Source: a virus (Duplodnaviria > Caudoviricetes). Taken from it: 36,598 nt of DNA. Position 1 is the first letter of the stretch. Every line of letters starts with the position of its first letter. The notes under the pieces were generated by a model that was given only the letters and a program-made list of their open reading frames with translations, was not told the DNA's origin and made no database searches. Of the stretch, positions 18,725 through 36,598 are shown piece after piece. The DNA is taken from the IMG/VR virus record IMGVR_UViG_3300020045_022195, positions 1 through 36,598 of that record; one strand, 5' to 3'. The position numbers and the translations under genes are program-made.

Positions 18725-20041
18725 TTACTCTAATACATCTTCAAGCCCTTCTACATCATTAAGCCCGAATAGCTCATTGATAACATCATTAAAAAGTTTG
18801 TCAAAGACTCCATTTGCACTCGTAATCCTCTTTCTTTTCTTTACAGGATGTCCAGAACCACCATAATAAATAACAATAGGCTGTTCTGTAAATGGTCTCT
18901 CAAACGCACCGGTTACAACGGGCGGCGTGCCATCAACAATTAAATCTCCGCTTAAATCATGGATAACAACATCATGAGCAATATGCGTCAATGAACCTGT
19001 TACAACAGACGGGCCGCCAGCTATTAAATCGCCAGATAGCGCATGATTTATGCCGGGTGTGGCCCTAGCTAATGAACCTGTTACAACAGAAGCGCTTCCA
19101 ACTAACGCGCCGGTCAAGTCATGCGTTACATTTTCGGGTGCATGATCAAACGCACCCGTTATGACTGGAGCTGCACCAACTAATGCGCCAGATAAATTAT
19201 GGGTTACGATAGCCGCATGAGTAAAAGAACCGGTCATTACCGGAGCGGAACCAACTAAAGCGCCAGATAATTCATGACTTGGCAATATAAAGTAAGTGCG
19301 AACCGGCTTTAAAAGCTGATATGGATATTCAGTCAGCTCATTTAAAAAGTCCTGATCAACAAATCCGCGCCAAAGAGCGGTTAATGCAACACCGCCTTGA
19401 AGACCGGTGTTATTATTGATTGTTGCGCAGATGGCAACAGCATTTGTGGCATTAGCAAATGATGCTGTTGAAGGTGTGCCCGTGTTAACTGATTTTGTAG
19501 CACCATCAAGCGCAGCTAACCAAGTATTGTCTTCTCCAGTCTTTCTTGTAAAGGCTACGTTATAAAATGTGTTAGCTAATGGCGCGAAAACAATGTCGGC
19601 AACAGGTGAAGCGCCAGACAAGACCGCTGATGCTCTAATCCTATTGAGGCCACCAACACCAAAGTTTAAAAATATATTATTTGTTGAAGGGCCACTCTGA
19701 GCATAAGTAACGACGCGCTTAGCATCAGTATCAGAAAGGGTTGAATAAGCCCGCGCAAATACCGTGAAAGAATCACTGGCTTCAATTAAATTTGCAGTAA
19801 ATACCTTTTCAAAATTGCTTGTTGTATCGGCATTTGAACAGACTAGCTCTGTATTTTTGCCTATGATCGAAGCTGTTGCACCATTTGCCGGTATTAAAAC
19901 CTGATTGACTAAATCAATCGCACCAGCGCCGGTTGGTATGATTAACGAGCGAAGATTTTTGACTAAATCATTATTATAGTCAATCTGTAACCGACCGGGA
20001 GGCCGCTTATTTTTATACTTGCTCCAAGCAGGAATAAACAT
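18725..20041 (-). CDS. LamG-like domain protein with five His-led ~25-aa repeats (frame may extend to 18599)
   Basis: N-terminus paralogous to 1805-2854. Repeats of H-x-L-[ST]-G-[AD]-L...V-[MIV]-T-G-[SA]-[FL]. Confidence 0.65.
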   Translation of the reverse strand: MFIPAWSKYKNKRPPGRLQIDYNNDLVKNLRSLIIPTGAGAIDLVNQVLIPANGATASIIGKNTELVCSNADTTSNFEKVFTANLIEASDSFTVFARAYSTLSDTDAKRVVTYAQSGPSTNNIFLNFGVGGLNRIRASAVLSGASPVADIVFAPLANTFYNVAFTRKTGEDNTWLAALDGATKSVNTGTPSTASFANATNAVAICATINNNTGLQGGVALTALWRGFVDQDFLNELTEYPYQLLKPVRTYFILPSHELSGALVGSAPVMTGSFTHAAIVTHNLSGALVGAAPVITGAFDHAPENVTHDLTGALVGSASVVTGSLARATPGINHALSGDLIAGGPSVVTGSLTHIAHDVVIHDLSGDLIVDGTPPVVTGAFERPFTEQPIVIYYGGSGHPVKKRKRITSANGVFDKLFNDVINELFGLNDVEGLEDVLE

Positions 20042-22938: not shown

Positions 22939-24328
22939 TTCGCCTTGCCTTCATTTTGTCAAGATGTTTTTTTGTTAATGCGCCCATTGTAATGTTATTA
23001 ATAGAATTTGCAAGTAAGTTATTGCTGGATGGCTTAATATCCCTCGCCTCTTTCCATGTAAGCGATAAATACCTGAATGCATCGGCATAGTTTGATGCCC
23101 AATCATGAACTGGCTGATCGGTGAATATCTTCTTCTCTTCGTCATAACCGTGATGATACGAGCGTAATGCCTCCAATCCATCGCCGCATGTATCATCATT
23201 GAAATAGCATCTAGGAAATGTTGCTCTGGCAGCTTGTATGCCTTGTTGTTTCGATACGTTAGGCACCTTCTTTATTGCCCCTAATCGCTCATCTTTATTC
23301 AAGTCATAAAACTGTTGTGCAATCGTCTTACCTCCTGCCGCAAGATGCGCCCCATAAGCATCATGCGGCAACCAAAGCGAAGAATAAGAATAGGGCTTTT
23401 CACGTAATAGATTATCGTAGAAAGGAATATCTTTGTGGTTCGATTCGTGGCAATCGATAATGTATATTTCGCTACCCTTTATTTGATAAAACCAAATTGC
23501 CGTTGTATCTGTGCTGCCTAAGTCAAAAGCTGTATGAACAGGATAATTGGTATCATACGGAAATACACCAATTCTATTTTGATATTGTAATTTAGATAAG
23601 CAATCTGCCCATATTGCACCAATGATAGCCGCATCAAACGATACATAATATTCTTGCAAATATATAGCAGTGCCAAACTCTTCGCCATGCTGCTGTATTA
23701 GCTCATTCTTAATTCTTGCTAATTGCTCAGGCTGAAATATTCCAGTTGTATCTGCGGTTTGCACATCGTAATACCAGGATTTATCATCTTCTGCCATTAA
23801 GCAAAGTTTATGAAAATGATTTTTACCGCGCGGAGTGCTGTTGAACGCTGCCCAGCCTCCATTCTCTTCCAAGATTGGCATTAGATAGGCCCATGATGAT
23901 GGGTTACTGATTGCGTACTCAGAAAATACAAGGCCAACAGGAGGGGAGCCGACGAGAGAGTTAAAATTATCTGAGCCAACAAGCTGAATAGTAGAGCCTG
24001 ATTTAAGCTCTATCTTCATTTCTTGCTGATTTGTTTTTTCTCTGATGATTTCAGGAATGATGGTATCTAGGCGCTTTTGTCCAGTGTTGGGATTTATTGC
24101 ATCCCACATGGATTTTCGTGCTTGCGCGTATTCAGGCAGCATGTACCAGTAGTTGCCTATACGTTCATGGGCTGCAACAATTGTAAAATTTAGATATACA
24201 TCATCCTTACCAGCCCTACGATGCCAACGAGCCACTGATCGTTTGCATCCTTGCATGAGCTTTGACCATAGTTGCTTCTGATGCTGTCGTGGCTTCCAGT
24301 TATTCGGGATGTTTATAATTTCATCCAT
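22925..24328 (-). CDS. terL: Terminase large subunit
   Basis: Walker A-like WHRRAGKD, Walker B LVFSEY, STPRGKNHF, nuclease DLG and HDWASNYADAFRY. Confidence 0.93.
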   Translation of the reverse strand: MDEIINIPNNWKPRQHQKQLWSKLMQGCKRSVARWHRRAGKDDVYLNFTIVAAHERIGNYWYMLPEYAQARKSMWDAINPNTGQKRLDTIIPEIIREKTNQQEMKIELKSGSTIQLVGSDNFNSLVGSPPVGLVFSEYAISNPSSWAYLMPILEENGGWAAFNSTPRGKNHFHKLCLMAEDDKSWYYDVQTADTTGIFQPEQLARIKNELIQQHGEEFGTAIYLQEYYVSFDAAIIGAIWADCLSKLQYQNRIGVFPYDTNYPVHTAFDLGSTDTTAIWFYQIKGSEIYIIDCHESNHKDIPFYDNLLREKPYSYSSLWLPHDAYGAHLAAGGKTIAQQFYDLNKDERLGAIKKVPNVSKQQGIQAARATFPRCYFNDDTCGDGLEALRSYHHGYDEEKKIFTDQPVHDWASNYADAFRYLSLTWKEARDIKPSSNNLLANSINNITMGALTKKHLDKMKARRNGEN

Positions 24329-24479
24329 GAATTATTTTATCAATCCCATGTAATTTCCCATCGTATCGTTTTTCTTTTTCGTATAAAGATAAAAAATATG
24401 CTTGATATTTTATCAATCCTTTTCGATATGCAAGCCATGTAAGATATGCATAATATTTAATAATATGTGAATTATTCAT
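24321..24479 (-). CDS. Small hypothetical protein (52 aa)
   Basis: MNNSHIIKYYAYLTWL... overlaps the TerL start; below track cutoff. Confidence 0.3.
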   Translation of the reverse strand: MNNSHIIKYYAYLTWLAYRKGLIKYQAYFLSLYEKEKRYDGKLHGIDKIIHG

Positions 24480-24547
24480 TAGCTAAAAATATTGATTAAG
24501 TTTGATATGATCCAGTCAATTAGTTCTATCATTTTTATATCGTTTCC

Positions 24548-24736
24548 CTAATTCTTACAATCAGCGCAAAACCAGGGATTTTTTACTGGATTTGTTCCAC
24601 CTTTTTTTATTTTCATTTCTTTGCATTTTGAGCATTTTTTTTGTTTAAAATTTAAATAATAACTTTTTATTTGTACGTAATCGCCTTCAGAGTAATTATC
24701 ATATCGAGTTCCTGTGCCTTTCGAACTAATTTTCAT
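24548..24736 (-). CDS. Small zinc-finger protein
   Basis: CSKC...WFCADC; start overlaps the TerS stop. Confidence 0.55.
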   Translation of the reverse strand: MKISSKGTGTRYDNYSEGDYVQIKSYYLNFKQKKCSKCKEMKIKKGGTNPVKNPWFCADCKN

Positions 24737-24969
24737 TATACGCTCTTATTGATATTAATAATTAATTTACCGCCTACTTCGCCGCTATGTTCAACTGCTT
24801 TCAAGTCAGGCATTGTTTTTTTAAGAAGTATTTCGATGGCTTTTATTCTATCTCTATCTAGCTCTATCAATCCAAGAGCAAAATCATCTAAGCGCTTCAA
24901 TAACTTAGCGCTAGAGATTGATTCTCTCCACTTCTCTTGTCTCTCTTTTGATCCCTTTGGTTCAGCCAT
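24736..24969 (-). CDS. terS: Terminase small subunit (short type)
   Basis: IKAIEILLKKTMPDLKAVEHSGEVGG C-terminal pattern; upstream of TerL. Confidence 0.7.
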   Translation of the reverse strand: MAEPKGSKERQEKWRESISSAKLLKRLDDFALGLIELDRDRIKAIEILLKKTMPDLKAVEHSGEVGGKLIININKSV

Positions 24970-25002
24970 TTGATAATTAAATAGTTTTATCGGATTGTTA
25001 TG

Positions 25003-25275
25003 TTATAACATATCATTTTTAAGTTGTGCAATCAAATAAACAAAATTTCTCTCAGTCATTCTGATCCATTCGTTCAAATGATCAATTGAATCGAATCCAT
25101 TTTCATCTATAAATTTTTTCTTTGATAAATCCGTATTAAGTTTTGATGATTTATAATAAAAATTGCAAATATTATAAATATCATATATTTCGCATTTTAT
25201 TTTATCATTTCTTATCTTTTCTTTTTCTTTAATTATTTTTAATGCAGTTTCAATTGCTTTGATTTCATTTTTCAT
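25003..25275 (-). CDS. Hypothetical protein
   Basis: 90-aa co-oriented ORF. Confidence 0.45.
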   Translation of the reverse strand: MKNEIKAIETALKIIKEKEKIRNDKIKCEIYDIYNICNFYYKSSKLNTDLSKKKFIDENGFDSIDHLNEWIRMTERNFVYLIAQLKNDML

Positions 25276-25426
25276 ATATGTCGCTCATATTTTTCTTTTT
25301 TTGTACATTCCCATTCTGATTTTTTTAATGCAATGCTTTCTTCGTTACTTACTGTATAAATTCCAAAGCCAGCAAAGATCAAAAACAATACTAACATTCC
25401 TAAAATTATATAATAAATATTATTAT

Positions 25427-25696
25427 TCATTGAACTGTCCAGCCTTTTCTAAGTATTTTTGTATTTTTATCGCAATAAAAAGAGTATCCAGCCGCCTCGC
25501 CGATTTGGATCAAGTCTTCATCAGAGTAAGTATCTAAGTTATCTCTTTCAATTCTAACTACACGACCAGATGTGCTGCCTTGTATCATTGCATTGTAATA
25601 CTCGCTGTAGCCCGTAAATATCGCATAAGCTACGTTGCCATCTCTTATTACGTGCGAGTGCATTTTCAATTGTGTTCTTTTGATAATGTTTTTCAT
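25427..25696 (-). CDS. Hypothetical protein
   Basis: ATG 25696 preceded by AATTGGAGAACAAA RBS and a consensus promoter. Confidence 0.6.
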   Translation of the reverse strand: MKNIIKRTQLKMHSHVIRDGNVAYAIFTGYSEYYNAMIQGSTSGRVVRIERDNLDTYSDEDLIQIGEAAGYSFYCDKNTKILRKGWTVQ

Positions 25697-25738
25697 TTTG
25701 TTCTCCAATTAATTTATGTTTGTTTTGATGTTGGATAT

Positions 25739-25767
25739 ATTAAATCATAAATTTATTATTGTGTCAA
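25739..25767 (-). promoter_or_regulatory. Sigma70-type promoter
   Basis: Minus strand TTGACA-17 nt-TTTAAT with extended -10 TG. Confidence 0.7.
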
Positions 25768-25844
25768 ATTATTTTTAAAATATTTTCATAGCCAGTCATT
25801 ACCGACCGCAACGAGTGCGGTAAATTTTATACAATGTACAAAAA

Positions 25845-25932
25845 CCGTATACTGTATATTTGTATATCCCCTATAGGGGGGATATACAATACAGTACAGT
25901 GTATAAAATCGTATATACACTGTATATATACG
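25845..25932. other. Palindrome-rich putative replication origin
   Basis: 12-bp IR TTGTATATCCCC/GGGGATATACAA (25860-25889), 11-bp IR TACAGTGTATA/TATACACTGTA (25895-25924) and repeated GTATA, all next to the helicase stop. Confidence 0.5.
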
Positions 25933-27084
25933 CTATTTTAGTACTAATATATTGTTGATTTTTAAAGGAATTTCTTCAAAAATACCGCTATTGATATACT
26001 TTGACAAAGAAACTCTTATATACTCGCTATTTTTTCCTACCATATTTTTAGCAAGAACGCAAAAATATTTTCTTTTTACGCCAATCTTATCGCCAAAAGA
26101 AATAGGATCATCTTCCAGACATTGAATAAACGCCTTATAAAAAATAGAATTTAACTCATTAAATTTTGCGTTTTTTTCTGGCCTAAATTGATCCAGATTA
26201 TCACTCACTAAATCGAGTACCAACGATGTAGAATTTGATCCATCCTGATTCATTAATCCAAGATCAACATGGCGCGCAATACAATGAATATCATCAAAAG
26301 TCTCAGAGTCTTTCATTTTTATACTTGAAAGCTTGCATCCCATGCCTTTATCGGCTTCCCTTTCCATAATCATTACAAAGTCCGTATTTCCCTGAAAAGC
26401 ATAAGCCCCACGAACACCGCGTTCAGCATCTTTTCCAAAATGGTGAACAATCAGGCTTGACGTAAAGCCATTAGCAATAGATCGCTGTATTTTTGCTAAT
26501 ACCGCACCAACCTCACTATTATCATTTTCATTTGTACGGCTATTCATACTCGAAAATGTATCAAAAATAACCAATGAAGGCCGCATTTTTTGAATTTCTA
26601 GCGATAACGCATCGACATCAGCATCAATATCCAAAAACATCTTTTGATCCATGATAAGCAGATTTTCAGCTAATCCATTTTTTACAATACTGAGCGCCCT
26701 TAACCTGCGACCTAATGCACCATGACCCTCGCCGCATACATAAATTACTTTATGTGAATGAAATGTTTTATATTCAAAAAATTCGCTACCAGTAGCCAAA
26801 CAATACGCTAATTCTAATGCCATAAACGACTTAAAAGCCTGACTAGCACCTGCCAGAATTCCATGAGAATCGATTTCTAAAATCTTATTAATTAAATAGG
26901 TAGGTGGGCTGGCATTTTCAGCCAGTTTTGAGGCAGAACTAAATGATATCTTGCTTCCCTTCTCTTCTTCTTGATCATCTTCAAATATGAATCCATTATT
27001 AAAATCAACCATATCCAGCGGGTCAGAATTAGCACGAATATTGGCTAGCTCAGCTCTTGCAAGCTCTATTATATTATCGGCCAT
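25933..27084 (-). CDS. AAA_25 / RepA-type (SF4-like) replicative helicase
   Basis: Walker A-like GASQAFKSF, YVCGEG, Walker B LVIFDT, ENDNSE and VHHFGKDAERGVRG. Confidence 0.85.
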   Translation of the reverse strand: MADNIIELARAELANIRANSDPLDMVDFNNGFIFEDDQEEEKGSKISFSSASKLAENASPPTYLINKILEIDSHGILAGASQAFKSFMALELAYCLATGSEFFEYKTFHSHKVIYVCGEGHGALGRRLRALSIVKNGLAENLLIMDQKMFLDIDADVDALSLEIQKMRPSLVIFDTFSSMNSRTNENDNSEVGAVLAKIQRSIANGFTSSLIVHHFGKDAERGVRGAYAFQGNTDFVMIMEREADKGMGCKLSSIKMKDSETFDDIHCIARHVDLGLMNQDGSNSTSLVLDLVSDNLDQFRPEKNAKFNELNSIFYKAFIQCLEDDPISFGDKIGVKRKYFCVLAKNMVGKNSEYIRVSLSKYINSGIFEEIPLKINNILVLK

Positions 27085-27087
27085 GAC

Positions 27088-27240
27088 TTAGCCTCTATTT
27101 GATTCGCGCTCTACCAATATCTGAATCCACCGACTCATGGATACTCCATTTTTATTCGCTTGCCTAAAAAGCTCGTCTTTAATGATGGCAGGCATACGCA
27201 TTTGAAGTGTAGAAGGAGTGGTTTTAGATTTTTTTTTCAT
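27088..27240 (-). CDS. Ribbon-helix-helix (Arc-like) DNA-binding protein, 50 aa
   Basis: MKKKSKTTPSTLQMRMPAIIKDELFRQANKNGVSMSRWIQILVERE: beta strand LQMRMP, helix, G-x-S, helix. Missed by the ORF track. Confidence 0.7.
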   Translation of the reverse strand: MKKKSKTTPSTLQMRMPAIIKDELFRQANKNGVSMSRWIQILVERESNRG

Positions 27241-27308
27241 TTTATACTTCCTTTTTTATAAATTGTATGGTAAAGTGTATCACAGATTTTAATTATTGGA
27301 GAAGAAAA

Positions 27309-27689
27309 ATGAACAGAGAATTACTAAAAAAATGCCTAAATGAATTTTATTTAATTCATGAAACAGCTGGAATAAGAAGTGCTGATATTTGCGAAGAAAT
27401 AGAGAAAGAGCTTTCCAAGCCTGAGCCTGATCCGGGCGCATGGATGTATCACTGGGAAGATGGCCAATTGTTTGGAATTTATGATAAAAGGCATCCATTA
27501 GCTCATAAATTGGATATTATTGAGAAATTGCTTTACACATCACCGCCAAGCCGTGAGCCGTTGAGTGAGGATGAAATAGAAAAATTGATTCATGATACAT
27601 TTGGGGAATTATGCCTATTGAGCAGTAAAGATTTATTTAAAATGGCTAGGGCCGTCGAAAAGTATAAAAATAATTTGACAACAAAATAA
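27309..27689 (+). CDS. Hypothetical phage protein
   Basis: ATG 27309 after ATTGGAGAAGAAAA. EPxAWMY...LYTSPP...PLSEDEI pattern common in phage early genes. Confidence 0.65.
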   Translation: MNRELLKKCLNEFYLIHETAGIRSADICEEIEKELSKPEPDPGAWMYHWEDGQLFGIYDKRHPLAHKLDIIEKLLYTSPPSREPLSEDEIEKLIHDTFGELCLLSSKDLFKMARAVEKYKNNLTTK

Positions 27690-27703
27690 TTTTATGATAT
27701 ATT
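27675..27703 (+). promoter_or_regulatory. Sigma70-type early promoter
   Basis: TTGACA (27675-80), 17 nt, TATATT (27698-703), with extended -10 TG. Confidence 0.75.
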
Positions 27704-27730
27704 AAGATCGTAATTTAACTGGAGATGAAA

Positions 27731-27901
27731 ATGAATACAAAAGAACTAATTGAAGCTTTAAGCGAAGATTTTCAAGAAGATAATAATTTAATTGATAACG
27801 CTTGTTTTAAAAGGCTAATAAGGCTTTCATATGAAAACGGAGAAAAAGGGGAAATATCTTGCTCATTACTAAATATAGTAAAAAAAATTGTGGAAATATA
27901 G
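27731..27901 (+). CDS. Hypothetical protein (56 aa)
   Basis: MNTKELIEALSEDF..., with AACTGGAGA RBS, first gene after the promoter. Confidence 0.6.
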   Translation: MNTKELIEALSEDFQEDNNLIDNACFKRLIRLSYENGEKGEISCSLLNIVKKIVEI

Positions 27902-27903
27902 TT

Positions 27904-28167
27904 ATGCAAATAATTGATAAAAATGAAATTAAAGAAATAACACCAGAAATTATATCCGAATTATTTTGCCATATGAGTCAAGACGAACAAGCAAGATTTT
28001 TTAATCACATATCAGAAATTGCTACAAAATGGTTTTGCTTTCAGTTGCAATATATAACAGATGATAATGGCCTTACCTATGGTGGTCGTAGAGTCATGCA
28101 GGAAATAGGAGAATATTCACATTGGGGGCTTGTGCCTAGAATCAATAATGAAGGTAAAGTAATTTAA
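27904..28167 (+). CDS. Hypothetical protein
   Basis: ATG 2 nt after the upstream stop. Confidence 0.6.
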   Translation: MQIIDKNEIKEITPEIISELFCHMSQDEQARFFNHISEIATKWFCFQLQYITDDNGLTYGGRRVMQEIGEYSHWGLVPRINNEGKVI

Positions 28168-28179
28168 CTGGAGATGAAA

Positions 28180-28695
28180 ATGCTAGCTAAAGATTTAATG
28201 AAAAAATACAATGCGTGCAATGCGGCAATTGAGTGGGCAGAAGAAAAAACAGTACAAGAAGCGTGGGATAAATGCGAACGTGGCGACTGGATGCTTTGGA
28301 TATATAAAAAATTATATCCTGATAATTTAAAAGAATTGACATTAGCAAAAGCCTATTGTGCGAATACCGTTAGGCACTTAATGAAAGATGAGCGAAGCAT
28401 AAATGCGGTAGATATAGCTATAAAATTTGGTAATGACAATGCTAACCGTGAAGAATTAAGGGCTGCTGCTTATGCTGCTTATGCTGCTGCTTCTGCTTCT
28501 CATGCTGCTTATGCTGTTGATGCTGCTGCTGATGCTGCTGCTTATGCTGCTTATGCTGCTGATGCTGCTGCTGCTTATGCTGCTGATGCTGCTGCTTATG
28601 CTGCTTATGCTGCTGCTTCTGCTGATGCTCTAAAAGATAATAGAAAAAAAACAGCTGATATATGCCGAAAATATCTAACTATTTTAACTGGATAG
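28180..28695 (+). CDS. Phage protein with Ala-rich (AAYAA/AADAA) low-complexity tract
   Basis: NAC...AWDKCERGDWMLW N-terminus; GCT-based repeat at ~28462-28629. Confidence 0.75.
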   Translation: MLAKDLMKKYNACNAAIEWAEEKTVQEAWDKCERGDWMLWIYKKLYPDNLKELTLAKAYCANTVRHLMKDERSINAVDIAIKFGNDNANREELRAAAYAAYAAASASHAAYAVDAAADAAAYAAYAADAAAAYAADAAAYAAYAAASADALKDNRKKTADICRKYLTILTG

Positions 28696-28700
28696 AAAAA

Positions 28701-28883
28701 ATGAAAGAAATCATTCTTGACACTATAAGCGATATGGTTACTGATCTTTTTTACTACAATAGAAAAAATGATGATGAATTGCCAATAGGGGAAATAGAAA
28801 AACTTATAAAAAATGGAGACATAACAATTGATGAAATGGTTAACGAATTTAAAAATTCTATTCTTAATATGATAAAAGAGTAA
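28701..28883 (+). CDS. Hypothetical protein
   Basis: ATG 28701 after AACTGGATAGAAAAA; FYYNRKNDDELP motif. Confidence 0.6.
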   Translation: MKEIILDTISDMVTDLFYYNRKNDDELPIGEIEKLIKNGDITIDEMVNEFKNSILNMIKE

Positions 28884-28889
28884 TAAAAA

Positions 28890-29036
28890 ATGGATAAAAC
28901 ATCAAAAAAAGACTGGCCAAACGTTAAAATTGATCCAGAACTGCACAAAAAAATTAGGCAATTTTGCCTTAATCAAGACCGACGCATTCAAGAATTTATA
29001 AATGAATGCCTCACTACGGAGAAGCATGTCAAATGA
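28890..29036 (+). CDS. Ribbon-helix-helix-like protein, 48 aa
   Basis: NVKIDPELHKKIRQFCLNQDRRIQEFINECL; ATGA overlap with the ERF gene. Missed by the ORF track. Confidence 0.6.
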   Translation: MDKTSKKDWPNVKIDPELHKKIRQFCLNQDRRIQEFINECLTTEKHVK

Positions 29037-29632
29037 ATATTTACCAAAAACTACAAAAAGCTAGAGTAGAGCTTTCAAAGTTATCGCTTAAAAAAAGTGG
29101 TAAAAATACTTTTGCAAATTACACTTATTTTGAATTAAGCGATTTTTTACCGCAAACTCAAACAATATTTAATGAAGTTGGATTGACTGGCATTGTAACT
29201 TTTGACGATGCTCAAGCAACTTTATCTATATATGAGCACGAAGGCGATGGATTTATCGTAATCACATGCCCACGTAAAGAGGCTGCCTTAAAGGGGTGCC
29301 ATCCTATACAAAATGAAGGAGCAATACAAACATATCAGCGTAGATATTTGTGGGTTAGTGCTATGGAAATATCGGAGCACGATGCCATAGATATGGGAGA
29401 AAAAAAGAAAGAAAAAGAAATTAAAGCATTAACTCCTCATATGGAAAAAATACTTGAGTATTGCTGCGAATTAATAGATAAAGATGATCCAGCATTTTGC
29501 AACGAATGGCGAGAACTAGACAAAATGCAACAAGAAATAATTTGGAAGGCTTTAAATACCAAGCAAAAAACTGTATCAAGAAAACTTTTATTTGAGGAAT
29601 CAAAAAATGTGCGGGACAGCAATGCAGAGTGA
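29033..29632 (+). CDS. erf: ERF-family single-strand annealing protein
   Basis: KKSGKNTFANYTYFELSDFLP and Q-x-x-GAIQTYQRRY signature. Confidence 0.85.
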   Translation: MNIYQKLQKARVELSKLSLKKSGKNTFANYTYFELSDFLPQTQTIFNEVGLTGIVTFDDAQATLSIYEHEGDGFIVITCPRKEAALKGCHPIQNEGAIQTYQRRYLWVSAMEISEHDAIDMGEKKKEKEIKALTPHMEKILEYCCELIDKDDPAFCNEWRELDKMQQEIIWKALNTKQKTVSRKLLFEESKNVRDSNAE

Positions 29633-29786
29633 TATTGAATGGATAAGTGAAAAAGATAATCGGCATATCGATTTTATAAAGTTTTCAGATTGGGTTACTC
29701 GCCTAGTTGAAGACGGGCATAAATTAGAATTTGCTAGAGAATTTGTTTATAAAAAAATGAAACAGGAATTAAAACATGCTAAATAA
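29622..29786 (+). CDS. Hypothetical protein
   Basis: Overlaps the ends of erf and ssb. Confidence 0.5.
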
Positions 29787-30195
29787 AGTTATGCTTATTG
29801 GGAATCTTGGTCATACGCCAGAAGTTAAGTTTTTGCCTAGCGGTGATCAGGTAACATCAATTTCACTTGCAACCACAGATCGATATAACGATAAAAAAAC
29901 AGGCCAAAGAGTTGAAAAAACTGAATGGCATAAAGTAATCTTTTTTGGAAAGGTTGCTGAAATAGCAGGTAAATATTTAGAAAAAGGATCAACTTGCTAT
30001 ATTGAAGGAAAAATACAAACAAGAAAGTACGAAGGAAAAGACGGTATTACAAAATACAGTACTGAGATTATTGCAAATGAGTTAAAGCTATTAGGAAATA
30101 AAAGTAATTCGGATAATAGCCATAATAATACAACAACGAATATCCATAGTAATGAGAAAAATAATGATTATTTTGATGATGATATTCCTTTTTAG
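29776..30195 (+). CDS. ssb: Single-stranded DNA-binding protein
   Basis: [11 protein letters not shown]...TEWHKV...[11 protein letters not shown] and C-terminal DDDIPF. Confidence 0.95.
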
Positions 30196-30253
30196 AGGTT
30201 GAAATCAAAGTTAATTTTGTGGTTAATGAACCGTTTTTGAAAGAGGTGTGATT

Positions 30254-30610
30254 ATGACTAAGTGGGTAGAAAATAAAAGCGTAAAGTTTGAAACTCAGGC
30301 TGATATATGGCGTTATTTGTTGGATGGCTGGGCAATAAAGTCAAAATCAGGGCAACTACATTTTATTGAAAATGGGAAAACTAATTTGTGCGGATTTAGT
30401 TATTATCACCCTGAAGAATGGATGCCAATGAAAAAAGAAGAATGGTATAAGGATATACCTGAGCAAGGGGTTTTGTGTTTGGCAGATGGTCAGTTAGTTT
30501 TAATACATTTATACAAAGAAGGATGGTTTTATTCAGGACAAGGTGGTATGTATAAAGACGCAATACCTCTAACCAAAAAAGAAGTCATAAAATACATCTA
30601 TGAAACTTGA
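30254..30610 (+). CDS. Hypothetical protein
   Basis: GAGGTG RBS; EWYKDIPEQGVLC pattern. Confidence 0.6.
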   Translation: MTKWVENKSVKFETQADIWRYLLDGWAIKSKSGQLHFIENGKTNLCGFSYYHPEEWMPMKKEEWYKDIPEQGVLCLADGQLVLIHLYKEGWFYSGQGGMYKDAIPLTKKEVIKYIYET

Positions 30611-30728
30611 TTCAAACGGCTGGAAATGTCCTATATGCGGAAATAATAGGCAATCTAAGGCACATAAAGAACAGCGGGAAAGGTGCGAACGATTGGTTAA
30701 GGAAATGTATTTACATAAGAGAAAGTAA
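30600..30728 (+). CDS. Small zinc-finger-like protein (42 aa)
   Basis: MKLDSNGWKCPICGNNRQSKAHKEQRERCERLVKEMYLHKRK; ATG overlaps the upstream gene end. Confidence 0.55.
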   Translation: MKLDSNGWKCPICGNNRQSKAHKEQRERCERLVKEMYLHKRK

Positions 30729-30737
30729 TGTTATACT
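30710..30737 (+). promoter_or_regulatory. Sigma70-type promoter upstream of the anti-RBS hairpin and HNH gene
   Basis: TTTACA (30710-15), 16 nt, TATACT (30732-37), with extended -10 TG. Confidence 0.6.
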
Positions 30738-30743
30738 AGACCT

Positions 30744-30785
30744 GCAAAGCAGAATTTTATCTTCTCCAGTTAATTTTGCTTTTAC
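30744..30785 (+). ncRNA. Candidate anti-RBS hairpin small RNA
   Basis: 11-bp stem AAAGCAGAATT/AATTTTGCTTT (one G-U) with loop TTATCTTCTCCAGTT, complementary to the repeated AACTGGAGA RBS motif. Confidence 0.5.
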
Positions 30786-30877
30786 TAAATGTGGCTAGGT
30801 TGATCTCCGAAAACTCCTTGAACAAGAGCCGCCACATTATTTTTTCGTTCAATAACTCACGTTCAGGAGTTCTCAAC

Positions 30878-31396
30878 ATGCTTACGCAAGAATATTTAAA
30901 ATCAATACTGGATTATGATCCAGAGACAGGTATTTTTACTTGGAAATTTAGACCAGGTCTTATAGGAAAACAAAAAACATTTAATAGTAAATTTGCAAAC
31001 AAAGAAGCTGGAAGCATAGATTTAAATGGATATAAAAGAGTTTGGATAAAAGGCCATCATTATTATTGCCATAGACTTGCTTTTTTATATGTTTATGGAG
31101 AAATTACAAAGTATCAAATAGATCATATTGATACCGACACATCAAACAATTGCATTAAAAATTTAAGGCCAGCAACTAGGCTTCAAAATGCTCAAAACAT
31201 AATTAAAGCAAATAAAGATAATCTTTCAACAGGATTATTAGGCGCTTCTTTAATTAAAAAGACTGGTAAATACAGGGCAAGAATAAAATTTAATAATGTT
31301 CAATATGATCTTGGTCATAACTTTAAAACAGCGCAAGATGCTCATAAGGCATACATAGCAGCCAAAAGAAAACTTCATGAATTTTGTACACTATGA
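30878..31396 (+). CDS. HNH homing endonuclease (HNH_3 type) with AP2-like C-terminus
   Basis: LTQEYLKSILDYDPETGIFTW, HRLAFLY, IDHIDTDTSNNCIKNLR, KYRARI...AHKAY. AGGAG RBS before ATG 30878. Confidence 0.9.
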   Translation: MLTQEYLKSILDYDPETGIFTWKFRPGLIGKQKTFNSKFANKEAGSIDLNGYKRVWIKGHHYYCHRLAFLYVYGEITKYQIDHIDTDTSNNCIKNLRPATRLQNAQNIIKANKDNLSTGLLGASLIKKTGKYRARIKFNNVQYDLGHNFKTAQDAHKAYIAAKRKLHEFCTL

Positions 31397-33024
31397 AGAA
31401 GCAGCCCAGAGATTACCAACGAGACGCTGCAAACGCCTTAGTAAAAGCATTGCGCCAAGGTCAAACACCATACGCTAATCTATGTACAGGATCAGGAAAG
31501 AGCTTAATTGCGGCTATGCTTTCAAACTGGATAGCCAATCAAAACGGCAGAGTAATCCAACTAGTACCATCGGTCGAATTGTGCGAACAAAATTTTAATG
31601 AAGCCGTTCATTATATCGATAAATCAAAAGAAATTGGCATATGCTGTGCAAAACTTGGAATGTACGAAACTGATAAGCGTATTGTTATAGCTACCGATAC
31701 CAGCTTTTTAAATCGTCGAGCCACAAGCGGTAAATTTGACGCCTGTATAATTGATGAATCGGATTTGGTTTCGCCTAATGAAGACTCCAGGCTTAGGAAA
31801 ATATTTAGGTCATTAGGTCGAATCAATGAAAAATGCTACTTTCCTGGTTTTACCGGTTCCCCGGTCAGGCTAGACCAGGGATTACTTGAAGATATACCCT
31901 ATCAAGGCTCCAGGTTTTTTACGAATTGCGTTTATGAGTCCGACATACCTAGATTAATCAGCGAAGGCTATTTATCCCACGTCGAAAGCATCAGCGGCGA
32001 TGTAGAAATAGATACATCTGATCTTAAAATATCAGGCACCGATTATAATACCGATCAAATGAACGTTAAATTTGACGGAATTGTTCATGATGCCGTCAAA
32101 GATATGCGTTTAAAATTCGATGCTTACAATATTGAAACAGCATTGATATTCGCTACCAGTATTAAAAATGCACAGCATATACTGGATGAATGGGGCGACA
32201 ATAGTACTATGCGTATAGCCTGGGGCGATATGCCAAAAAAAGATAGGGAAGACTGTGTCGAATGGTTTAAAAATGGCAAAGAAAAGCGATATTTGGTTAA
32301 CGTCGGGCTATTTGTAAGAGGCTTTGATTATCCTGCTTTGAATGCCGTTGTTTTGTTTTTTGCGACTGTTAGTCAACGTAAATATATTCAAGTATGTGGA
32401 CGAGTCATAAGAGCAGCATCTGAAAAACTACTAGGCTATGTATTGGACTACGGAACCAATATCGAGAGACACGGCCCAATAGATGCAACCCTGCCACCTA
32501 AGCCCAAAAAGCGCCGTGGCGATGCTCCAAAAAAGCTTTGCTTGCTATGCAATACGGTAAATCTGCTATCGGCTAAATTCTGTAAAGATTGCGGAGCCCA
32601 GTTCATTAGCGGGTCTGAGGAAGGCAAGTATTCTATGCGGTCAAAGGCTGAAATATTGGCCGCTAAGACCGTTGAAGCCTATCATGAGATAACGGATGTT
32701 ATGCCGATATTGTGCCATAGCCGAAGCAATGGCTTACCTATGGTTAAGCTTAAATATCACGCAGGATTTCAATGCGTACACGAAGAATATTTAATGCTTG
32801 ATCATCCAGGAGGAATTGCAAATAAATATAAAGTTTTCTTAAGAGAAATGTTTAAAAATGAAGATGATTATTATCGCATGGGAGAGGAAGGCCACACGGT
32901 AGAAAACGCATTAATCCTGCTTGAGAACAATCAGGAATATTTTAGGAAGGTAAAGGCGATTGTTACGGCTAAGACTGAGGGAGAGAAATATAAACGACTG
33001 ATAAGGGTTGACTATGAGCACTGA
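31393..33024 (+). CDS. SF2 DExD/H helicase (RadD/YejH-like) with zinc ribbon
   Basis: PRDYQ, CTGSGKS, IIDESD, GFTGSP, GFDYP, QVCGRVIR, CLLC...CKDCG. Confidence 0.9.
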   Translation: MKKQPRDYQRDAANALVKALRQGQTPYANLCTGSGKSLIAAMLSNWIANQNGRVIQLVPSVELCEQNFNEAVHYIDKSKEIGICCAKLGMYETDKRIVIATDTSFLNRRATSGKFDACIIDESDLVSPNEDSRLRKIFRSLGRINEKCYFPGFTGSPVRLDQGLLEDIPYQGSRFFTNCVYESDIPRLISEGYLSHVESISGDVEIDTSDLKISGTDYNTDQMNVKFDGIVHDAVKDMRLKFDAYNIETALIFATSIKNAQHILDEWGDNSTMRIAWGDMPKKDREDCVEWFKNGKEKRYLVNVGLFVRGFDYPALNAVVLFFATVSQRKYIQVCGRVIRAASEKLLGYVLDYGTNIERHGPIDATLPPKPKKRRGDAPKKLCLLCNTVNLLSAKFCKDCGAQFISGSEEGKYSMRSKAEILAAKTVEAYHEITDVMPILCHSRSNGLPMVKLKYHAGFQCVHEEYLMLDHPGGIANKYKVFLREMFKNEDDYYRMGEEGHTVENALILLENNQEYFRKVKAIVTAKTEGEKYKRLIRVDYEH

Positions 33025-33106
33025 ACTATTGCATATCGATTGCATGGAATACATGGCAACATTGCCGGATAAGGCTTTTGATTTGGCTATTGTTGATATT
33101 ATATAA
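33014..33106 (+). pseudogene. Truncated DNA N6/N4-methyltransferase remnant
   Basis: MSTELLHIDCMEYMATLPDKAFDLAIVD-II-stop: the N-terminus of a beta-class MTase ending where DPPY is expected. Confidence 0.7.
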
Positions 33107-33112
33107 AAACAT

Positions 33113-33316
33113 ATGAGCATACTAGATGATATAAAAGCCACAAAAGCCAAACGAAACAACACAATCGAAGCATCAGACTTGATAGATAAAGTAGTTTTTG
33201 AGCGGGCTTTGATGGACTTGGGAATAGACAGGGACACAATCGACGACTGCTTACAAGAAAGCCCGTTATTGTGGCCTAGTTTTTTGCATTATTTTGAGGA
33301 AGAGTATAAAAAATGA
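33113..33316 (+). CDS. Hypothetical protein
   Basis: 67-aa ORF with ATGA overlap to the next gene. Confidence 0.55.
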   Translation: MSILDDIKATKAKRNNTIEASDLIDKVVFERALMDLGIDRDTIDDCLQESPLLWPSFLHYFEEEYKK

Positions 33317-33504
33317 TAGCAATAATAAACATAGACAAAAATCCACGAAAAACAGGATGGCATGACTACGAAATAAGAATAAATAAGCAGGTTATATCAA
33401 CTTTTAAGCATCGACGTGAAGATGGATTATTGGGGTTTGTCTGGCTAGAGCATCAGCAGCGTCTAAGCCATCTAATATTTGCGCTAAACTTTTGCTGGAA
33501 ATAG
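33313..33504 (+). CDS. Hypothetical protein (possibly frameshifted near 33430)
   Basis: MIAIINID...YEIRINKQVISTFKHRREDGL. Confidence 0.5.
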   Translation: MIAIINIDKNPRKTGWHDYEIRINKQVISTFKHRREDGLLGFVWLEHQQRLSHLIFALNFCWK

Positions 33505-33543
33505 GGAAGTGACTTGATAGATAAAGTGATTTTGAGGAAGAGT

Positions 33544-33723
33544 ATGAGAAAAAATGACATCCCAAAAGATATATTACGATGTACAGGATTTTCTTATAAT
33601 CCTGTATGTGCAGGATGCTTACGAATGAAATATAAAAATTATTATTATTTATTTCTTAATATTATTGATGAGCCTCTTGATAAGTGTGACTTTAGAATAG
33701 GTGAAAATAATGATAAGCGATGA
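33544..33723 (+). CDS. Small Cys-rich protein
   Basis: IPKDILRCTG...CAGCLR...CDFRI. Confidence 0.55.
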   Translation: MRKNDIPKDILRCTGFSYNPVCAGCLRMKYKNYYYLFLNIIDEPLDKCDFRIGENNDKR

Positions 33724-34222
33724 AATATTTTCAAAAGAGCTTGATGAAATTTTAAAAATTCGCAAAACACCAAAAAAACTACGCAATGAAATTATTGATT
33801 ATGAGCTAATGCAGACTGTTGAAAGCAGAGACTCAGTATTGGAACGCAATAGAGCATTAATACCTAAAAAAGAACGCATACCAAGCGAAGATACTGAACA
33901 AATAAACTCGGTCGAGTGGTTTAGAAAAAAATTTCCTGATGTCGATATTCTTTCTATTCGCAATGAAGGTAGCCGTACACCGGCAGAGAAGGCTAAGCAG
34001 TTATGCATGGGGCTTCTTCCTGGAGCATCAGACTTGCTTATACCGGATTGGCATTTGTATATTGAAATGAAGCGTGTTAAGGGTGGAGTGCTAAGTAAAG
34101 AGCAAAGTGAATTTTGTGATAGACGTATTAAAAATGGTGATTATTACATGGTTTGCTATGGATTTGAGCATTTTAAAGAAGTGATTATTGGATTCTATCA
34201 ATTGAAAATAAGAAAACAATAG
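33710..34222 (+). CDS. VRR-NUC family (PD-(D/E)xK) nuclease
   Basis: SEDTEQ...IRNEG...MGLLPGASDL...YIEMKRVKGGVLSKEQ. Confidence 0.85.
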   Translation: MISDEIFSKELDEILKIRKTPKKLRNEIIDYELMQTVESRDSVLERNRALIPKKERIPSEDTEQINSVEWFRKKFPDVDILSIRNEGSRTPAEKAKQLCMGLLPGASDLLIPDWHLYIEMKRVKGGVLSKEQSEFCDRRIKNGDYYMVCYGFEHFKEVIIGFYQLKIRKQ

Positions 34223-34245
34223 AAACAATCAATTATACTCAAGTG

Positions 34246-34271
34246 TAAATTTATGATTTAATATATCCAAC
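34246..34271 (+). promoter_or_regulatory. Extended -10 promoter block identical to 25730-25755 (minus strand)
   Basis: 26-bp identity TAAATTTATGATTTAATATATCCAAC. Confidence 0.65.
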
Positions 34272-34299
34272 TTAAAAAGAAACATAACTGGAGAGAAAA

Positions 34300-34443
34300 A
34301 TGAATAATTTAGGACAAGGAATAGGGTTTGCTGTACTTGTTTTTTCTACTGCGTGGCTAGAAATTAATGACAAACCAGTAAATGGTTTATGGTTTCTTGT
34401 GGTTTTATGGGCAGTATTAGCTGATTGGAGTGATAAGAAATGA
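34300..34443 (+). CDS. Small two-TM membrane protein (47 aa)
   Basis: MNNLGQGIGFAVLVFSTAWLEINDKPVNGLWFLVVLWAVLADW, with AACTGGAGA RBS. Confidence 0.6.
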   Translation: MNNLGQGIGFAVLVFSTAWLEINDKPVNGLWFLVVLWAVLADWSDKK

Positions 34444-34769
34444 ACAAAGACAGATTTAACAACATACAAGAATCCTACGACAACATGGAAGCACCTTTTG
34501 ATGAGGGCTACCAAACTAAAGAAGAAATAGATAAAGAAAATGAGCAAGAATTAAAATACTACTTATTAATCGATCAAGCCAGGAGCGGAGATAATGCAGC
34601 AAAAGGATATGAAGCATTTTATGATGCAATAGCTTCCTGCGATGAAAATATTGCTAATCTTCTTTTTGATATGATTATTACAGCGGCTGACTACAACGGA
34701 AGTGAGGCAACAGTACCTGATTTCGTTCGCCTGGTAAGAATGGCATTTGAATGGAAAAGCAAGCAATAA
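34440..34769 (+). CDS. Acidic hypothetical protein
   Basis: ATGA overlap with the upstream gene. Confidence 0.6.
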   Translation: MNKDRFNNIQESYDNMEAPFDEGYQTKEEIDKENEQELKYYLLIDQARSGDNAAKGYEAFYDAIASCDENIANLLFDMIITAADYNGSEATVPDFVRLVRMAFEWKSKQ

Positions 34770-34793
34770 GCCTACCTCCTTAGGCTCCCACTA

Positions 34794-34821
34794 GCCCTGT
34801 GTAGTTGGCAGGGCGTTTTTT
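34794..34821 (+). terminator. Rho-independent terminator
   Basis: GCCCTG-9 nt-CAGGGC-GTTTTTT. Confidence 0.65.
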
Positions 34822-34877
34822 GAATGGCTTTGAAATGAACATAGAGGCATTAATCTTAGTAGTTCAGAGTCATTCAA

Positions 34878-35000
34878 AAAGCGGCGGCGTGGAAATCGTA
34901 GACACGCACGGCACCGGGAATTTTAATCATATCAAGCCGGACGATCTGTCGTACGCGAGCGTCAGCAGAACCATAACCGGAGTAACGCCCGGTCTGCTTT
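34878..35000 (+). ncRNA. tRNA-like structured RNA (non-canonical)
   Basis: Acceptor-like stem AAAGCGG/CTGCTTT, D-like arm GCGT-GGAAATCGTAGAC-ACGC and T-like arm ACCGG-AGTAACGC-CCGGT. A ~68-nt insert replaces the anticodon arm. Confidence 0.5.
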
Positions 35001-35126
35001 AGACCTAGGCCAAGTCTTAAAACTGGTCTGACAATTTTTTTAAATGGCTTTACGAAACACTATGCTACCTAATTCAGTAAAAGATTGCGGTAGAGCCATT
35101 CAAAAAATTAAAACACTGGAGATAAA

Positions 35127-35339
35127 ATGAGCATACAAATGAAGCCAGAAATAATGCTAAGAATAAAATCGGCATCAAAAGATAGCCCGATTGCAGTATT
35201 TAGCTGCAAAGAACCGTTGCACTATAGAGCGGCTTTTGCATCGACTGTACAATCAGTACGAGAAATGCGAGATGATCAACGGTTTATAGGATCATTTCAT
35301 CGAGATAATAAAGGAGAGGCAATGAGGCTATTAAAATGA
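35127..35339 (+). CDS. Hypothetical protein
   Basis: ACTGGAGATAAA RBS. Confidence 0.6.
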   Translation: MSIQMKPEIMLRIKSASKDSPIAVFSCKEPLHYRAAFASTVQSVREMRDDQRFIGSFHRDNKGEAMRLLK

Positions 35340-35461
35340 AAAAAATATTTATGATTGATCAAAAATATCGTCATACGCATAATTGGATATTAGATATTCC
35401 GGCATGGCTATTTGTAGCGATGGTAATGGCAATAGCAATATCTGGATTTATTAGAATTTAA
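35336..35461 (+). CDS. Small membrane protein (41 aa)
   Basis: ATGA overlap; C-terminal hydrophobic IPAWLFVAMVMAIAISGFI. Confidence 0.45.
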   Translation: MKKIFMIDQKYRHTHNWILDIPAWLFVAMVMAIAISGFIRI

Positions 35462-35487
35462 TTTTTACCACAACAAAAGAGGAATTT

Positions 35488-35895
35488 ATGAAAAAAACAG
35501 CAATAGCATTAATAGCAGTATCACTACAGGCTTGTGCTTGGAACTCAACAATGGGACAAGACGATAGATTCCAGGTTGCATCAACAGCCAGTTTTTTTGC
35601 TCCGTCAGTAACTACAGTTGTTGATACAAAAAACCCTGGTGCATTGCCATCAACTTATGCCGGCCCATCTGTTGTTGGGCAATTAGCACAAGCAGCGGGG
35701 GTAACGGCAGCGGGGGCATTTGTTGGTCATGGACTCGGCAAATCAGGTACAAATGTAAGTCAAAACGGTGGTGGAGCACAATCAAACTCTCTATCTAATT
35801 CATTGTCTGGCTCGTCTGCAACATCAAAATCTTATTCAAAATCGGTGTCGGAAGTGGAATTAAATAACGTAAACAAACACACAGGACATTATTAA
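35488..35895 (+). CDS. Lipoprotein with Gly/Ser-rich tail
   Basis: MKKTAIALIAVSLQAC lipobox; GAGG RBS. Confidence 0.7.
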   Translation: MKKTAIALIAVSLQACAWNSTMGQDDRFQVASTASFFAPSVTTVVDTKNPGALPSTYAGPSVVGQLAQAAGVTAAGAFVGHGLGKSGTNVSQNGGGAQSNSLSNSLSGSSATSKSYSKSVSEVELNNVNKHTGHY

Positions 35896-35988
35896 TGCTT
35901 ATCTTCGACTATCTTCCAGAATATGCAGTATTTTTAATTGAAATCGGTTGTGTATTTTGGTTTATAGTCGAATCAACTGGAGAATAAA

Positions 35989-36477
35989 ATGAATAAAAAA
36001 CTACAAGTAACTATTAATCTTGATGAATTTTATCTTGAATCAGATGAAAGAGGTCAGGAATCAATACAATCAGCTTTATTATCTACCATCAAGCATGAAG
36101 TTGTTTCTGAAATATGGTGCAAAATAAGACAAGAAGTCAATAAAGAAATAAAAGACTCAGTAATTAATGAAATAAATTCAACAATTAGGATTAGAATTAA
36201 TACTCATATTGATGAATATCTAAATACTGGATTATTGAGACCTTATATTGAAGGAGGTGAAAATATAACAATTAAGGATTATTTGCATATGCACATAACA
36301 GACAATAGATATTGGCAAAATTTAGGGGCAAATTTAGCAAAAGTTGCAGAAAATTTTGCTAAAGAGTTGTCAAAAAAATACGATCTTATGTTCGCTACAG
36401 AAATTATAATGAAGGTTAAAGATAGCGGAATGCTTGATAGAGATAAACTCGATAAGCTTTTAAATAATAATCAATAA
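35989..36477 (+). CDS. Hypothetical protein
   Basis: AACTGGAGAATAAA RBS; 162 aa. Confidence 0.65.
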   Translation: MNKKLQVTINLDEFYLESDERGQESIQSALLSTIKHEVVSEIWCKIRQEVNKEIKDSVINEINSTIRIRINTHIDEYLNTGLLRPYIEGGENITIKDYLHMHITDNRYWQNLGANLAKVAENFAKELSKKYDLMFATEIIMKVKDSGMLDRDKLDKLLNNNQ

Positions 36478-36490
36478 CTGGAGAATAAAA

Positions 36491-36598
36491 ATGATTGAAA
36501 TAGCATGGTTAATTGTTGCAGGAATTGGTGCTATCGGGCTTATGATTTGCTTTTCGATAGCAATGGGTAAAATGATTAAATTTGGTGATGGTGAATGA
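36491..36598 (+). CDS. Small single-TM protein (35 aa)
   Basis: MIEIAWLIVAGIGAIGLMICFSIAMG..., AACTGGAGAATAAAA RBS; stop at the window end. Confidence 0.5.
   Translation: MIEIAWLIVAGIGAIGLMICFSIAMGKMIKFGDGE

Follow-up and report, generated by a model that had tools for sequence, protein, structure and literature searches.

Several RNAs are known that block translation through a seed displayed in a loop. RNAIII, RsaE and the cuckoo family carry a UCUCC seed in an open loop, act on many targets and occlude ribosome-binding sites (RBSs). They are host-encoded and aimed at generic Shine-Dalgarno (SD) sequences. Among phages, P4 CI and P22 sar are antisense RNAs of the c4-like kind. The c4 antisense RNA of P1/P7 offers the nearest mechanism to the one considered here; in the available portion of its description, it acts on the antirepressor message for immunity (PMC12197685). 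According to the accessible text of PMC1702504, phage T4 shuts off its early mRNAs with RegB, via GGAG and an A-rich tail in the SD.

The closest described start-site motif is the start-associated sequence (SAS) of cluster K mycobacteriophages. Papers of 2011, 2024 and 2025 state its role as unknown (PMC3203893, PMC11373665, PMC12699233), and in the parts of these papers that are available, the description of SAS includes no hairpin or antisense RNA. The available part of PMC3203893 leaves open whether the SAS partner is RNA or protein, and that of PMC12699233 says that SAS function still needs testing. Four K1 genomes contain one reversed SAS copy away from any start (Pope et al., PMC3203893, available text).

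The window analysed here is the whole of IMG/VR record IMGVR_UViG_3300020045_022195, a stretch of 36,598 nucleotides classed as a provirus and 96% complete. The phage is tailed, and its major capsid protein has relatives in Myxococcus phage Mx8 and Brucella phage Tb. Structural and packaging genes are on the minus strand at 1–24969. Non-structural genes are mostly on the plus strand from 27309 and include those for an Erf-like annealing protein, SSB, an HNH endonuclease, a helicase, a nuclease-like protein and many small unknowns. A cluster of palindromes at 25790–25930 (perfect stems of 12 bp and 11 bp, and others) lies beside an AAA helicase/primase-like gene and is a possible replication origin. 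No match to tyrosine integrase (PF00589) is seen in this 96%-complete record, and the control matched in 14 of 14 genomes. No CI-like repressor is present among the proteins scanned, with only a weak Arc-like match. Based on these two absences, a lysis/lysogeny switch, which the sequence-only reading of this DNA had offered as one role of the locus, is unsupported. The provirus class stands against the lack of a tyrosine integrase match; the source contig is 38,303 nt, with ~1.7 kb outside the record.

The locus begins with a sigma70-type promoter match, TTTACA-16-TATACT with an extended -10 TG, at 30710–30737 on the plus strand, overlapping the end of a 42-aa ORF (30600–30728). This promoter had been proposed from the letters alone; in the promoter scan it scores 10/12. 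Only two plus-strand sites in the 12.6 kb of 24000–36598, this one included, reach at least 10/12, and each has the TG. A fixed 6-nt window would hold such a site with probability 0.0024, or 0.00013 if the TG is required. Promoter-like sites are commoner in shuffles (56.6) than in the scan (41), so the match alone is not proof of a promoter. Its predicted start, ~30744–30746, falls at the first bases of the hairpin described below, and thus its transcript would include the hairpin. The hairpin RNA is likely transcribed from this adjacent predicted promoter; a search for RNA sequencing runs returned none.

The hairpin occupies 30746–30782 on the plus strand and starts 17 nt past the stop codon (30728). 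Two arms, 30746–30756 and 30772–30782, enclose a 15-nt loop at 30757–30771. All the coordinates proposed earlier are correct, and the 11-bp stem has the proposed length and position, with the qualification that one pair is G·U (G30752·U30776); the other 10 are Watson-Crick, and only two pairs of the stem are G-C. The fold is weak (-8.3 kcal/mol). For a 42-nt cut whose ends were picked after the fold was seen, z is -3.27 on the plus strand and -0.90 on the minus strand; a 56-nt cut gives only -0.67, and significance is limited to the 42-nt cut. The loop is accessible, with a predicted opening cost of 0.54 kcal/mol, in both a ~42-nt and a ~100-nt form of the RNA. The U-rich run said to follow the hairpin is there, as UUUU at 30780–30783, but it is just four U with three of them inside the stem, and the terminator scan of the window does not list the hairpin 30746–30782. 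It is at best a weak possible terminator tail. Read on the minus strand, the loop leads into ATT; the sequence-only reading had rightly stated that no ATG comes next. The Rfam search returns nothing relevant to the hairpin, with no match to the C4 covariance model or to sRNAs of the RNAIII, RsaE or cuckoo type. A 40-aa ORF (30757–30879, minus) and a 63-aa ORF (30607–30798, plus) overlap the hairpin, neither with an RBS. Elsewhere on the plus strand, a small hairpin at 34765–34822 carrying the anti-SD-like sequence CCTACCTCCTTAGG lies directly before a clear terminator (34794–34814).

The loop is antisense to a start-site tag and is the predicted seed of the RNA. The tag consists of AACTGGAGA and an A-rich tail, and it does not fit the SAS consensus GGGATAGGAGCCC. 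Exact copies of AACTGGAGA number six in the window: five on the plus strand before ATG, and one in the form of the hairpin loop. With at most one mismatch there are 14 matches against 5.7 ± 2.3 expected, a number reached in 0 of 100 shuffles. Only two hairpins on both strands of the window have a stem of at least 11 bp and a loop of 9–24 nt. The expected number of 9-mer tag complements is 6e-5 in the loops of those two, and 8e-4 across the 34 window hairpins with a stem of at least 9 bp. The coincidence of loop and tag is far beyond chance, with about 1e-3 or fewer matches expected.

The five exact tags are found at the start sites named in the sequence-only reading. They begin at 27717 (27717–27725, ATG 27731, region 27658–27733), 28166 (28166–28174, ATG 28180, region 28159–28182), 34286 (34286–34294, ATG 34300, region 34231–34302), 35975 (ATG 35989, region 35975–35991) and 36476 (ATG 36491, region 36476–36493), all on the plus strand. 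The variants reported near 35114, 28686, 27294 (plus) and 25702–25710 (minus) are likewise real. They precede ATG 35127 (35114–35129), ATG 28701 (28686–28703, with GGAT), ATG 27309 of a 126-aa gene (27294–27311), and the start at 25696 of an 89-aa gene on the minus strand (25696–25784, with a promoter-like box and leader). About nine start sites had been counted. These nine stand, and a tenth variant absent from that list precedes ATG 34440 (34423–34442, plus), giving five exact and five variant copies, all before ATG. The earlier statement that the copies at 27717 and 28166 match 13 of 15 loop positions is right, except that 35975 and 36476 do the same, making four starts rather than two. One coding site in a late gene (19527–19541, minus) likewise matches 13 of the 15 positions.

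The tag is confined to one part of the gene set. Gene starts were hand-listed from the ORF tables, 68 in all (32 non-structural, 36 structural or packaging). The pattern AYTGGAK, formulated after the data were seen, precedes 10 of the 32 non-structural starts and 0 of the 36 structural or packaging starts (Fisher p 2e-4). None of the tagged genes, all small, has an informative family match, and the starts of the SSB, HNH, helicase and nuclease genes are untagged. One tagged gene, of 171 aa, contains an Ala/Tyr/Asp low-complexity repeat (28443–28658, plus), and this region is a sub-threshold match to Rfam isrG.

Three related promoter-leader cassettes precede tagged genes: 25714–25784 (minus), 27658–27704 (plus) and 34231–34287 (plus), the last with a duplicated promoter-like box and leader. 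They share repeats of 57 nt at 84% and 47 nt at 81%, plus a 25-nt exact repeat. The promoter match of the second, 27675–27703 (11/12, with TG), is the strongest of the region. Because three tags (those of the minus-strand gene at 25696 and of genes 27731 and 34300) are in duplicated cassettes, the tag copies are not independent. The tags at 35975 and 36476 hold GGAGAATAAAA (35979–35989 and 36480–36490), which is exactly the 11-nt T4 RegB site, spelled GGAGAAUAAAA. The other tags are GGAG or GGAT with an A-rich tail.

Pairing prediction over the initiation regions places the motif-bearing starts on top, as the sequence-only reading had anticipated. When accessibility-weighted binding to the loop is computed for the 68 starts, the nine sites listed earlier rank 1–7, 10 and 11, and 34440 ranks 8, so that the tagged starts hold ranks 1–8, 10 and 11. 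Rank 9 is the untagged start 35336. The Erf start pairs with the loop only in part (rank 14). The best predicted target is the start at 28180, with an extended duplex of -29 kcal/mol, and the weakest is that at 28701. Full-length duplexes between RNA and target extend into both stem arms and range from -15 to -29 kcal/mol; net cofold energies over the targets are -3.3 to -18.6. By these predictions the RNA has one feature of a trans-acting base-pairing sRNA, an accessible seed complementary to the initiation regions of its targets. Shuffled loops bind as well as the real one in 0 of 1500 cases when the full loop is shuffled, in 12 of 1500 when CTCC is kept and in 85 of 1500 when TCTCCA is kept. 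These facts indicate that the match exceeds the SD core, but only modestly beyond six bases. Stem permutations match the real duplexes in 26 of 1500 cases when pairs are permuted, and in 259 of 1500 when they are also flipped. The tailoring of the RNA to its targets beyond the 6-nt core is modest.

Five bases past the hairpin begins the stem (30788–30838) of another structured element, the int-alpA-like leader of the HNH gene (30788–30877, plus), with a U6 run at 30840–30845. It is followed by the HNH endonuclease gene (30878–31396, plus) and the helicase gene (31393–33024), both untagged. The segment 30812–30823 of the leader is near-complementary to the RBS region 30861–30871 and partly to 30847–30852. 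The core pattern of this leader is seen in ~220 viral stretches, typically 75–90 nt before a gene start; among the matches listed, we take many of the genes behind it to be of endonuclease or antirepressor type, judging by their N-termini. The closest-looking copies of the core are those of loci L346, L371 and L415. Six of 11 leader loci match Rfam int-alpA (RF02996) at 25.4–40.8 bits, two of them above the gathering score, and the window copy 30788–30877 is not a match, falling short of the Rfam threshold of 35.8 bits. It shares the invariant core of the family that matches the model, and the model R1 matches the window by construction. In an alignment of 30 copies, 90.7% of cells are paired against 30–59% in slid controls, and the outer and inner stems covary, with double changes in 6 of 9 pairs. 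The core was the search pattern, and its invariance is therefore by construction. The element thus has the features of an int-alpA-type leader: core, covarying stems, U-rich tail, and a position before a DNA-acting gene.

Among 55 distinct copies of the leader, 19 have a strong -10 box ending 6–14 nt before the core, mostly 8–10 nt, against 0–5 in control windows. The window leader has no -10 at the usual spacing. Its only strong -10 is 55 nt upstream, which implies that the hairpin sits between the promoter and the leader this promoter probably serves. Transcription from the promoter at 30710 probably continues into this leader and the two genes behind it. The resulting RNA could stop at the weak U4 (~42 nt) or at the U6 (~100 nt; z -2.13 for the fold of this form), or it could read through into the HNH and helicase genes. 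With the hairpin in this position, a free RNA of ~40 nt is only one of three possible forms. No counterpart of the anti-tag hairpin was noticed among the upstream contexts listed for the sibling leader loci. A different leader lies before the HNH or helicase genes of relatives, at ~11070–10990 of L111 (G013 31070–30990, minus) and at 16175–16275 of L108 (G011, plus). It consists of a promoter, a small hairpin and a long terminator-like stem, and the loops of the last two are complementary to each other.

Relatives of the window were gathered by capsid (80 loci), Erf (6) and helicase (17 viral, 5 genomic, and none with the single protein). The hairpin was not found in the related records covered, namely 36 of 40 (nearly) whole, with G001, G020, G028 and G032 not whole, and MW202489. 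Its exact 20-mer has 0 occurrences in viral contigs, and the 16 metagenomic stretches that contain the 20-mer share no gene with the window. Against cultured phages, blastn with 30690–30900 gives only short matches with E of at least 0.7 among the best 15 of 104. Relatives with the same helicase (37–53% identity) carry other leaders at this locus, and the closest helicase (P0002, on a 12.5-kb Logan contig) is 76% identical. In L001, 18 nt match the promoter, with no hairpin behind them. In 40 related records the exact tag occurs as one copy in 10 and as more than one in none.

As an RBS design the tag is common among phages, with 119 stretches that carry it. At 4696–13213 of L220 (G041), an array of promoter and AACTGGAG start cassettes serves ~17 genes, with 17 ATG-linked tags in 20 kb; no matching hairpin is present in its 55-kb, 26%-complete sequence. 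A strict detector of hairpins with targets, run on 30 records, reports at least three targets only in the window (six targets) and two-target hits in 11 others. With a relaxed detector, 12 of 51 other records give hits with at least three targets, and the stems of these hits all measure 7–9 bp. Hairpins antisense to the record's own repeated RBS are seen in MW202489 (36700–36755, minus; 13-bp stem, z -6.3, three ATG-linked copies), L334 (7585–7630, plus) and L150 (95–165, plus). Suggestive candidates with tags other than that of the window are those of MW202489, G042 (z -2.2) and G034 (z -3.0, on the strand opposite its targets). All of these hairpins are possible analogues.

The same arrangement is found in cluster K mycobacteriophages. 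Among five genomes, reversed SAS is seen in Anaya, Kratio and ZoeJ, and the search turned up no copy in the other two, Pixie and Unicorn. The ZoeJ copy was rejected as a loop, being an ordinary ATG start of a minus-strand frame. In Anaya and Kratio it is a hairpin loop; the Kratio hairpin has a 16-bp stem and a 13-nt loop. Reversed copies are at JF704106 59870–59882, KM923971 813–825 and JX042579 ~1243–1269. BLAST with the Kratio hairpin retrieves 149 Mycobacterium phage records, duplicates included, and BLAST with the Anaya version retrieves 126. Reversed SAS is inside the loop in 10 of 10 folded records (z -1.6 to -9.6), a sample of Anaya, Kratio and eight from the best 40 of the 149 that is biased towards similarity. 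Both sides have changed in 6 of the 15 consensus pairs of the hairpin. Records with the reversed SAS as a hairpin loop belong to K1, K3 and K5. In Adephagia the reversed SAS (JF704105 58684–58694) is strongly folded (z -6.97) between genes 92 and 93, where late transcription starts according to the available text of PMC11373665. These comparisons show that an anti-tag architecture is conserved in cluster K; they are evidence of neither homology nor function for the window element.

The reading we give slightly better than even chances is that the hairpin acts in trans as an anti-RBS RNA and damps expression of the earliest accessory genes. What is visible in the sequence for this explanation is the promoter match, the hairpin, the complementarity of loop and tag, and the limitation of the tag to small non-structural genes. 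The exposed loop would nucleate on the tag in trans, and the weak A/U-rich stem would then unzip. The duplex would come to cover the spacer as well as the SD core and would often reach the A-U of the start codon. Because the GGAG core and the spacer both lie within the predicted duplex, loading of the ribosome (30S) on tagged genes would be blocked by the established sRNA mechanism. One small RNA would likely switch the tagged genes off together. The active RNA may be the ~42-nt product of leaky termination, the ~100-nt product ending in U6, or the 5' end of the mRNA. The net effect might be an early-to-replication switch, in which the onset of the replication block coincides with damping of the accessory genes that have strong promoters of their own. 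The trans-acting anti-RBS RNA of the sequence-only reading thus survives in its open loop, in the tagged starts ranking on top, in the restriction of the tag to non-structural genes and in the cluster K parallel; the free ~40-nt species it envisaged is reduced to one form among three.

Several other explanations can be considered for the same locus. The hairpin might be a local terminator or attenuator, or a 5' stabiliser of the int-alpA/HNH leader, derived from an inverted tagged leader, in which case the complementarity would reflect descent and have no role in trans. Over 22 nt, its 3' half shows 82% complementarity to the gene 34300 leader, the leader cassettes have been duplicated, and its minus strand resembles the tag, a spacer and ATT. 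In addition, it is found in no relative examined, a stop codon precedes it by 17 nt, and it is immediately followed by a leader of a family in which the -10 is usually 8–10 nt upstream (19/55). We nevertheless regard this origin as unlikely, for a 15-nt loop and four U make a poor terminator, and an inverted relic leaves unexplained why the tag falls precisely within the loop of a hairpin that, with one other, is the longest of the long-loop kind in the window and why cluster K phages have a conserved equivalent. It is still less probable that a real pairing involves the 3' end of an early mRNA from the 27675 promoter, which would act in cis on 27717, 28166 and 28686 or as a processed fragment, leaving the 30710 promoter to serve the HNH cassette only. 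The hairpin does follow the last stop (30728) of an unbroken plus-strand gene run with three tags, and these include the two best-ranked targets. Yet the start of the 30710 promoter falls at the first bases of the hairpin, five tagged starts are downstream, and one is on the other strand.

The tag could also be read by a protein, either a RegB-like nuclease with S1 or a translational repressor, or be a plain strong initiation signal, with the hairpin as a relic or a tuner of access. The design of the tag is common in unrelated phages, and two tags contain the exact 11-nt T4 RegB site (PMC1702504, accessible text). This is very unlikely given that a protein decoy would need a sense copy, whereas the fold and the promoter favour the antisense strand; the record also has no match to RegB (PF10715), a weak negative as the control matched nowhere. 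The minus strand was likewise dismissed as a CsrA-type decoy: the CsrA consensus is ANGGA, and this strand has no ANGGA spacing and a weaker fold (z -0.90). Finally, the pairing might activate or stabilise the messages, or the whole match might be a coincidence. Background hits of the relaxed detector in 12 of 51 records speak for coincidence, but the chance estimate is 8e-4 or lower, and a duplex predicted to cover the GGAG core and spacer argues against activation. We attach hardly any probability to either.

Returning to the anti-RBS RNA, its comparison with known systems can be made as follows. SAS and its extended counterpart ESAS resemble the window tag in being private, extended RBSs a few nt before ATG (3–9 for SAS) and limited to non-structural genes, with a subset behind a repeated promoter box and a single reversed copy not at a start, as far as the available descriptions go. 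The window tag is likewise a repeated asymmetric motif before ATG, limited to non-structural genes. Its three copies behind duplicated promoter-like boxes are reminiscent of ESAS, and no internal 17-bp inverted repeat is reported there. The two tags differ in sequence and in host group, and that of the window is shorter and more degenerate. In the cluster K records covered here, the hairpin is found close to the right end or immediately upstream of the small terminase gene, whereas that of the window is between a promoter and the HNH leader. The int-alpA model RF02996 has no anti-tag hairpin. T4 RegB is a protein nuclease and not an RNA, even if two window tags equal its 11-nt site.

RNAIII, RsaE and the cuckoo family differ from the window in that here the phage carries both the predicted RNA and the matching private tag. 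In the portion of its description that is available, c4 is similarly a structured RNA made by a phage, in which complementarity shown in a loop serves to block translation close to the RBS; it targets an antirepressor message, while the window has one simple hairpin with about ten dispersed predicted targets. No phage hairpin antisense to a shared start tag is described within the mostly open-access papers searched, and a literature search for the name BSRC1 led to no relevant paper. It can be speculated, with rather less than even confidence, that many phages run an RNA-only regulon made of a private start tag and one mirror hairpin. Here one promoter would open the replication genes while producing the RNA by which the earliest genes are silenced. 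For cluster K, the same device would head the late transcript and be the missing SAS partner, unexplained since 2011.

The window by itself is a single example known from sequence; the design is also seen in cultured cluster K phages of Mycobacterium smegmatis, in which the idea can be put to the test directly through mutants and the RNA-seq already available. If it is true, ten RBS tags and one mirror hairpin would form a compact, protein-free timing switch, in contrast to the characterised phage antisense RNAs of c4 type, which act on one message, and to the early shut-off of T4, which uses a protein nuclease. Loop-seeded occlusion of the RBS is already known from c4 and bacterial sRNAs; the pairing of a phage-private tag with one mirror RNA is a variation on it.
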